Source: a virus (taxonomy: Duplodnaviria > Heunggongvirae > Uroviricota > Caudoviricetes). Taken from it: a stretch of DNA of 5,048 bases. The translations under genes were made by a program, and so were the position numbers. A model generated the notes under the pieces. It was not told where the DNA came from, made no database searches, and saw only the letters and a list, made by a program, of their open reading frames with translations. Below, in pieces: positions 2,733 to 3,005 of this stretch. The stretch covers positions 1 through 5,048 of the IMG/VR virus record IMGVR_UViG_2663763286_000012. One strand, 5' to 3'. Position 1 is the first letter of the stretch, and each line of letters begins with the position of its first letter.

Positions 2733-3005
2733 CTACCTGCCTTGACGAAAGACCTTAAGAACATCGTTAAACTGACTTACGGATATGTCTTCTTTGAGCA
2801 GCTTTTCCAGAAATGCATTTGGAATGAACGTATATCCCTCCTCTTTTGGTAGAGACGGGAGCAACGCCCTCGCCTCAGCCTTCAGAAGCTCAGTTCTGGC
2901 AACTTTCACAAAAGAGATTTGAGTTCTTTCATCAATGGAACGAAGGAAGCGCAAACGCTTAGCTTCTTTGTGTGTATCAGGTGGATTAAAGCCTTTGTTT
3001 CGCAT
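2733..3005 (-). CDS. Hypothetical 90-aa protein encoded between cII and the O-like gene (where lambda has only about 30 bp); function unknown
   Basis: ATG at 3005-3003 preceded by GAGGT about 7 nt upstream. The stop TAG (2735-2733) lies 2 nt before the O-like ATG (2730). The frame remains open upstream but there it overlaps cII out of frame. I do not recognise the protein (MRNKGFNPPDTHKEAKRLRFLRS...). Confidence 0.5.
   Translation of the reverse strand: MRNKGFNPPDTHKEAKRLRFLRSIDERTQISFVKVARTELLKAEARALLPSLPKEEGYTFIPNAFLEKLLKEDISVSQFNDVLKVFRQGR

Follow-up and report, generated by a model that had tools for sequence, protein, structure and literature searches.

A small gene of known arrangement between cII/oop and an O-like initiator gene in a lambdoid prophage, and its possible role in replication initiation

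The stretch of viral DNA analyzed here (Caudoviricetes; IMG/VR record IMGVR_UViG_2663763286_000012, positions 1 to 5,048), whose full 5,048 nucleotides (nt) we call the window, is a lambdoid immunity and replication region in reverse orientation, according to library scans of its proteins. Our subject is a 90-codon reading frame at 2733-3005, named X here, between the cII/oop segment and an O-like initiator gene. The window presents the early-right operon in reverse, which puts X on the minus strand, with its ATG at 3005-3003 and its TAG stop at 2735-2733. The product (10.5 kDa, isoelectric point (pI) 10.0) belongs to PHROG 2519, and an identical protein is annotated in phage records. By gene order X is a delayed-early gene of a lambdoid prophage, the first after cII and oop on the pR transcript, and its position downstream of pR and cro suggests that it would be expressed only after induction and not from the repressed prophage. 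As a genome-scan finding, X is an ordinary annotated hypothetical gene in a known arrangement.

The gene before X is a lambda-type cII (3028-3321, minus strand; 97 amino acids (aa); Pfam Phage_CII, E 1e-48; 100% identical to lambda CII, L004), and from the cII stop at 3028 to the X ATG there is a 22-nt gap. A Shine-Dalgarno sequence read off the DNA, GAGG at 3016-3013 of the minus strand, precedes the ATG with a 7-nt spacer, and AGG or GAG is kept at this position across homologous loci; the minus strand reads CGAGGTAATTATATG over the X start region. After the X TAG come TT and then, at 2730, the ATG of the O-like initiator gene (1783-2730, minus strand; 315 aa; Pfam Phage_rep_O, E 4e-15). A DnaB-family replicative helicase gene (410-1786, minus strand; 458 aa; DnaB_C, E 9e-78; DnaB, E 4e-13) completes the replication module. 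On the immunity side are a cro-like gene (3441-3656, minus strand) and a cI-like repressor gene (3768-4427, plus strand). The cII-O gap of lambda itself measures 32 nt (cII end 38653, O start 38686). A first-pass annotation of this DNA had described a 273-bp open reading frame (ORF) with a good Shine-Dalgarno in the cII-O gap, an O-like gene 2 nt past its stop, and a lambda O starting about 30 bp after cII, and had taken the frame for a gene extra to lambda in the early operon with the replication genes. Each of these observations was borne out, the last by position, X lying in the pR operon directly ahead of the replication genes.

The X start codon occupies the position of the lambda O start codon, over the -10 element of the antisense oop promoter. 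A perfect TATAAT at 3005-3010 on the plus strand is the candidate oop -10, and it shares one base with the start codon (CAT, 3003-3005), an overlap also noticed at first pass and upheld here. Lambda shows the same overlap between its O start codon and the oop -10, CATAAT, and the P22 record has the oop promoter annotated across the start of orf48, as at X. The candidate -35, TGGATT at 2982-2987 (plus strand), is weak, lies inside X codons 7-8 and is not conserved; it matches at only 3 of 6 positions, which is why a generic sigma-70 scan missed the promoter. The predicted oop-like antisense RNA (3017-3085, plus strand, ends approximate) has a 5′ stem-loop and an intrinsic terminator and overlaps the 3′ end of cII; the terminator scan places the oop-type terminator at 3052-3079, followed by a T-run. 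The 3′ half of this RNA is identical to lambda oop, and the whole is predicted to fold as two hairpins (-21 kcal/mol, z -2.9). An Rfam scan of the window returned no family for oop, the sole match being the frameshift pseudoknot of an insertion sequence. In one related locus (L089) this place is taken by another hairpin, whose A-run lies on the coding strand.

The length of the X frame is not significant by itself, because the window also holds several spurious ORFs of 80-193 aa; X is set above chance by its comparative conservation. Family searches found 34 proteins when word-indexed over 5.8 billion clustered sequences and 15 when made as an exhaustive profile search of 1.84 billion representative proteins, and by these searches the X family is small and restricted to prophages of Enterobacteriaceae. 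Full-length members have 86-93 aa, with identities down to about 50%, and homologs of 90-93 aa occupy the same slot in E. coli, Salmonella, Scandinavium, Pseudescherichia and metagenomic contigs. The first-pass annotation had proposed conservation of the frame as a test of X. The frame is conserved: Nei-Gojobori comparisons among seven loci gave nonsynonymous proportions (pN) of 0.06-0.40 against synonymous proportions (pS) of 0.41-0.83, with pS largely saturated, and the corresponding rate ratio (dN/dS) was 0.04-0.27 wherever dS was computable. The C-terminal third is best conserved, with I61, P62, N63, F79, L83 and F86 invariant, and X is intact in 278 of the 279 E. coli genomes that carry it. 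With its frame conserved under purifying selection X stands as a gene, and by this comparative evidence it is a real, selected protein-coding one.

Two other ways of reading the frame were rejected. Longer starts are offered by the 193-aa ORF (GTG at 3314) and by gene calls of 120-164 aa (P0001, P0002, P0035), which are upstream extensions through cII in another frame; we rejected them because the homologs all begin MRNK behind a Shine-Dalgarno and because the upstream sequence differs between cII types. A programmed -1 frameshift yielding an X-O fusion was likewise set aside: ahead of its ATG the O frame stays open for just 9 codons, a slippery heptamer is lacking, and lineages differ in their X-O junction.

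The protein has been annotated before. X matches the phrog_2519 hidden Markov model with E 1.9e-57 and 192.8 bits (residues 1-90 on profile positions 1-90 of 90), and also, weakly, phrog_678. It is carried by 57 phage records, among them CUS-3, JEP4, Gally, HF4s, Kapi1, TL-2011a and about 50 Stx2a-converting phages, at an identity of at least 97.8% in 55 of them. Kapi1_024 (QOC59542.1, Escherichia phage vB_EcoP_Kapi1), whose annotation carries "phrog_2519" and "CDD:Phage_rep_O", and its equivalents in JEP4, Gally, HF4s, TL-2011a and Stx2a phage 981509 (Stx2a981509_24) are the same protein (98-100% identity) in the same slot between cII and the O-like gene, and nothing substantive differs. Every annotation of the protein reads "hypothetical protein", including those of its identical form in Kapi1, in JEP4 and in a number of Stx2a phages; CUS-3 has the ORF without an annotation. 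We found X in 279 of 5426 complete E. coli genomes (about 5%), as "hypothetical protein", and the exact sequence in the UniRef cluster represented by A0A0B1HPY7, "uncharacterized protein"; among species-representative genomes it occurs in two species only, a Scandinavium and a Pseudescherichia metagenome-assembled genome. The protein had gone unrecognized at first pass, and can now be given its names: PHROG 2519, Kapi1_024, and UniRef cluster A0A0B1HPY7. Literature searches for phrog_2519 and for DUF2740, the Pfam family of P22 orf48, returned no match, and the retrieved passages of the Eru paper (PMC8044961) do not mention the X ORF; the "orf48" of PMC12373910 is an unrelated library number. 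X and its arrangement are already known and annotated.

The N-terminal half of X is strongly basic (pI 10.9). AlphaFold, given a 19-sequence alignment that included distant family members, returned a model with a predicted local distance difference test (pLDDT) score of 83.7 and a predicted TM-score (pTM) of 0.62, and a 12-sequence alignment gave a poor model (pLDDT 58). The better model has helices at residues 10-23 and 26-51, a short hairpin at 54-59, and helices at 63-71 and 76-87, the N-terminal half forming a very basic helical hairpin; the basic N-terminus and helical character foreseen from the sequence alone are thereby supported. The model had no fold match, the family profile found no match in a sequence search of the PDB, and an NCBIfam search gave no match for X. 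A ribbon-helix-helix reading of KRLRFLRSIDER was rejected, as the model gives helix there and no Pfam family of that fold matched.

The C-terminal part of X weakly resembles an initiator. Against Pfam Phage_rep_O (PF04492) X scores 14.6 bits (E 0.048), residues 55-88 aligning with profile positions 6-39 of 95, and such sub-threshold matches (E ≤ 1) occur in 16 of the 19 family members, the best with E 5e-5. The strand and first two helices of the N-terminal winged helix of lambda O, DDGYARLSNMLLEAYSGADLTKRQFKVLLAIL, correspond to these X residues 55-88 (EEGYTFIPNAFLEKLLKEDISVSQFNDVLKVF), and X is nearer to the classical Phage_rep_O motif than to its own cognate initiator. X differs from Phage_rep_O in ending before the recognition helix and wing, which rules out a complete DNA-binding winged helix; the cognate O possesses a full domain of its own.

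The cII-oop-orf-O-P layout of lambda-like phages was described in 2012 (PMC3349717), and X conforms to it as an ORF between the oop promoter region and an O-like gene, with its ATG at the position of the lambda O ATG. Lambdoid phages whose replication modules are not of the lambda type usually have a small ORF in the cII-O slot, such as orf48 in P22 and gp53 in HK97. We surveyed the slot in 80 viral contigs that have essentially the same lambda-type cII as the window. Lambda O follows cII directly, at +33, in 58 of these; the next ORF is orf48 in 12, a gp53-like ORF in four, X in four and a 214-aa ORF in one, and one contig ends after cII. In this sample small ORFs are absent from all 58 loci with a lambda-type O, and all 20 small-ORF loci have non-lambda initiators, no P loader, and a phage-encoded helicase next where visible. 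The first-pass annotation had implied that the insertion is unusual; on this survey, and on the annotations of P22 and HK97, it is not. The 214-aa ORF (L156, 2827-3471) likewise lies between cII and O, beside the same cII type.

P22 orf48 (NP_059609; Pfam DUF2740/PF10872; PHROG 1913) occupies the same slot, between c1 (cII)/oop and gene 18. Like X it has its start codon under the oop promoter, is small and basic, and belongs to a module with its own DnaB-type helicase; its 3′ end overlaps the initiator start. It differs in having 48 aa, against 90 for X, and in lacking the C-terminal O-like element. The two proteins share a weak motif, HKxxxRxRFLxS, at the same residue numbers (X residues 8-25), to which profile-profile comparison with hhalign assigned P 0.005 and a probability of 7% over 18 residues; none of the 19 X family members matched PF10872 at E ≤ 1. 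In our judgment the PHROG 1913 label "tail protein" is not credible for orf48 at that gene position. In another locus, near the same cII type as in the window (L098, 3934-5292), orf48 and a classical-O module are followed by a 452-aa non-DnaB protein.

HK97 gp53 (NP_037738; PHROG 1331) also lies between cII and O, overlapping the O start by 14 nt. The C-terminal domain of HK97 O is 97.6% identical to that encoded in the window, and the helicases of HK97-type loci are 99-100% identical to the window's. The differences are that gp53 has 53 aa and that its partner O has an N-terminal domain of a different type. We detected no similarity between X and gp53 (hhalign P 0.55), and gp53 matches only phrog_1331, which X does not match.

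That three unrelated or barely related peptides share one slot invites the reading that X matters mainly in cis, its translation delivering ribosomes to the O start and its 5′ end carrying the oop promoter, with a near-functionless peptide as the by-product. In its favor, all three small-ORF families have a stop next to, or overlapping, the O start, and most comparisons show depressed synonymous divergence over X codons 1-8, the site of the oop promoter. The DNA AATTATATGCGAAAYAAAGG is kept even where the X protein is only 52% identical, and this and the depressed synonymous change fit an oop promoter overlapping translation-start signals. A near-functionless peptide is hard to square with strong purifying selection on amino acids across all 90 residues, strongest in the C-terminal third, with a length kept at 90-93 aa, or with the confident compact fold predicted by AlphaFold, and we consider a mainly cis role improbable.

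The two partial likenesses, to O and to orf48, bear on the origin of X. It is plausible, from these comparisons, that X arose when a leader resembling orf48 was joined to the 5′ end of an older O gene. Taken further, X would be a decaying relic today, a 5′ fragment of an older O, possibly fused to such a leader, with no present function. The last 35 residues do resemble the start of the Phage_rep_O domain, residues 8-25 are weakly like P22 orf48 through the motif given above, and the start region of O (AGGTAGTTATG) resembles that of X (AGGTAATTATATG). A dN/dS of 0.04-0.27, a frame intact across genera at saturating synonymous divergence, and intactness in all but one of the 279 E. coli genomes tell the other way, and we think it very improbable that X is such a relic. 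The idea may describe where X came from and not what it is now, its present-state version being contradicted by selection.

The same initiator-like element allows a more speculative proposal, that X is a truncated initiator mimic whose C-terminal strand-helix-helix copies the classical O N-terminal interface and binds O-type proteins in trans. This is a long shot. If true, X could dose how its own initiator oligomerizes at the origin, or else poison those of rival lambdoid phages and prophages that replicate in the same cell; in the latter case it would be a replication-level weapon in competition between phages. By extension orf48 and gp53 would belong to an overlooked class of replication modulators.

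X is closely linked to its initiator gene. Across all lineages examined its stop either stands 2 nt away from the O start or overlaps it (in the forms TAGnnATG, ATGA and ATGGCTAG). Wherever a locus is long enough to reveal the gene order, that order is cII-X-O-DnaB, even at 44-52% X identity; these loci come from Scandinavium, Salmonella, Pseudescherichia and metagenomic contigs. We located homology breakpoints in 82 loci with nearly identical X (at least 99%). The flanks of these loci are mosaic: cII comes in two types, at about 98% and about 40% identity, and the O C-terminus with the helicase in at least two. All 82 share an O N-terminal domain of at least 94% identity, and no breakpoint falls between window positions 2275 and 3075. 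Homology of the block containing X ends at the oop terminator, at the cII 5′ end, or at the iterons (about 2250) or further. It stops at the oop terminator/cII 3′ end (window about 3075-3099) in 28 of the 82 loci, where cII is only about 40% identical upstream, so that the conserved oop segment serves as a joint at which immunity and replication modules recombine. On the O side, three of the four breakpoints closest to X fall at about 2250-2274, in the iteron region, and the fourth at about 2100, just beyond. The phage collection has 57 records with X and 57 with the full-length O. Since no breakpoint lies within 2275-3075, oop, X, the origin-binding domain and iterons move as one unit in recent evolution.

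The part of O co-inherited with X is its origin-binding domain (residues 1-190); residues 190-315 form an HK97-type domain, the one 97.6% identical to HK97 O, that is common to modules with this helicase. The presumed origin iterons are in the O coding sequence at 2173-2222 and 2254-2315, as TCATGTGCGG-type units with a 12-nt period; the two clusters hold about four units each, stand about 30 bp apart, and encode a histidine/alanine-rich linker. O codon 21 is an in-frame internal ATG (2670-2668, minus strand) with a strong AGGAG before it, chosen as the start by gene callers in the Salmonella and Scandinavium loci. The upstream ATG, 2 nt after X, is the conserved start, because one divergent locus (L092) has CTG at codon 21 and because the 20-residue extension is conserved; this extension is comparable with MTNTAKILNF of lambda O. 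Dual initiation of O is possible.

The first-pass annotation had called X a moron-type insertion. X does stand between genes that are adjacent in a relative, cII and O being adjacent in lambda, which is one mark of a moron in the sense of Juhala and Hendrix. Another is a promoter and terminator of its own, and we found no sigma-70-like or terminator-like site on the minus strand from 2600 to 3500. A third is a nucleotide composition distinct from the neighbors; the content of guanine plus cytosine (GC) is 44.0% in X, 48.6% in cII and 50.0% in O, a modest difference over only 273 nt. A fourth, expression from the repressed prophage, is made unlikely by the position of X downstream of pR and cro. 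PADLOC models gave no credible match to X, the best (JetB, E 0.021) not being meaningful. The label is not supported, given the lack of its own promoter and terminator, the conserved adjacency to O, and the single block formed with the O N-terminus: judged by these signals and this linkage X is not a classical moron, and a host-directed moron is unlikely.

In a looser form the idea is that X is an accessory, moron-like gene acting on the host or on competitors while riding in a variable oop-O slot; host takeover, anti-defense, or tuning of the lysis-lysogeny decision through cII would be examples. The slot is variable indeed, holding orf48, gp53, X, the 214-aa ORF or a 265-aa ParB-like ORF; X has 44% GC against 49-50% in its neighbors, its identity across lineages roughly follows cII and not the initiator, and a Klebsiella phage has this initiator type without X. 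These points are offset by the absence of its own promoter or terminator, by the conserved start/stop adjacency or overlap with O, by the fact that X was never split from the O N-terminal domain in the 82 loci, by the lack of a match to defense or anti-defense models, and by its position, from which X would be expressed only after induction. We regard an accessory gene of this kind as unlikely, if by no means negligible.

The reading that we prefer, tentatively and without rating it as probable, is that X may be a small factor, accessory or regulatory, in the initiation of replication by modules that carry their own helicase. It would be made together with the O-like initiator and could aid or adjust the way in which the O-origin complex assembles, or the recruiting of the DnaB-type helicase that the phage itself encodes. 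Its role would probably be generic to own-helicase modules and not tied to one origin specificity, because the slot holds orf48 or gp53 beside several initiator types.

A number of observations weigh against a role in initiation. The initiator likeness falls short of Phage_rep_O membership, at 14.6 bits against a gathering cut-off of 28.7 and with partial coverage of the domain; hhalign gave the X C-terminus and the cognate O N-terminus a probability of 0.3%, and the exhaustive search of 1.84 billion proteins with the X profile found no full-length initiators. The slot contrast between lambda and non-lambda modules rests on very few independent lineages. Klebsiella phage Kp4862-1 (L096, 2204-4760) has this O N-terminal type (76% identity) without X, so X is not essential for this initiator family. 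At depth X identity does not track the initiator, the locus with CTG at O codon 21 having 44% identity in X and 69% in the O N-terminus, and another locus (L095) pairs an X homolog with an initiator type that is paired with orf48 elsewhere (L136). The lower GC of X than of cII and O is compatible with separate acquisition, and the tight X-O linkage may merely reflect physical adjacency.

To our knowledge, no one has established what the small ORFs that separate oop from the initiator gene do in lambdoid phages of the P22, HK97 and Stx types. Replication-module constructs have included them undissected, as does a P22 cro-c1-orf48-O-P phagemid (PMC8585504). X, a common one among them, sits in a module that controls phage replication and hence, once the prophage is induced, phage gene dosage; should X modulate initiation, replication differences between Stx phage types could be affected.

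Among the relatives, the slot of Kp4862-1 holds the 265-aa ORF, which is ParB/Srx-like, and its initiator is a hybrid with a lambda-O-like C-terminus, next to a lambda-P-like loader; it reads as a clear example of domain-level mosaicism in O. Two further loci (L093, 2570-2728; L094, 2154-2312) encode a 52-aa chimera of a Cro-like N-terminus and the last 34 residues of an X homolog. The chimera immediately follows a cI-like gene and precedes an O-like one, and it appears to have arisen by a deletion that removed cro-cII and the 5′ part of X.

Near the far end of the window, an IS3-family insertion sequence starts at about 4668/4669 (TGAACCGCCCCGG...), with orfA at 4722-5048; the Rfam match, ALIL at 5003-5048, is its frameshift pseudoknot. 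It begins right after nutL boxB (GCCCTGAAGAAGGGC, 4637-4651), where the leader of gene N should continue, and the best-matching complete E. coli genomes align with the window only up to 4667. From these two facts the element separates pL/nutL from N in this copy, and the prophage may be N-defective.

At the other end of the module, an 89-aa ORF at 144-413 (minus strand; PHROG 2239), a conserved uncharacterized small gene of the same module, begins in the helicase stop region with an ATGA overlap (410-413). In Stx2a phage 981509 (L005, 5220-7613) and about 14 IMG/VR loci (e.g., L018 and L027) the DnaB-like helicase gene has 2394 nt (797 aa), and only in its 3′ part does it match the window helicase, over residues 202-458 of the latter; a large in-frame insertion after about residue 201, possibly an intein, is indicated.
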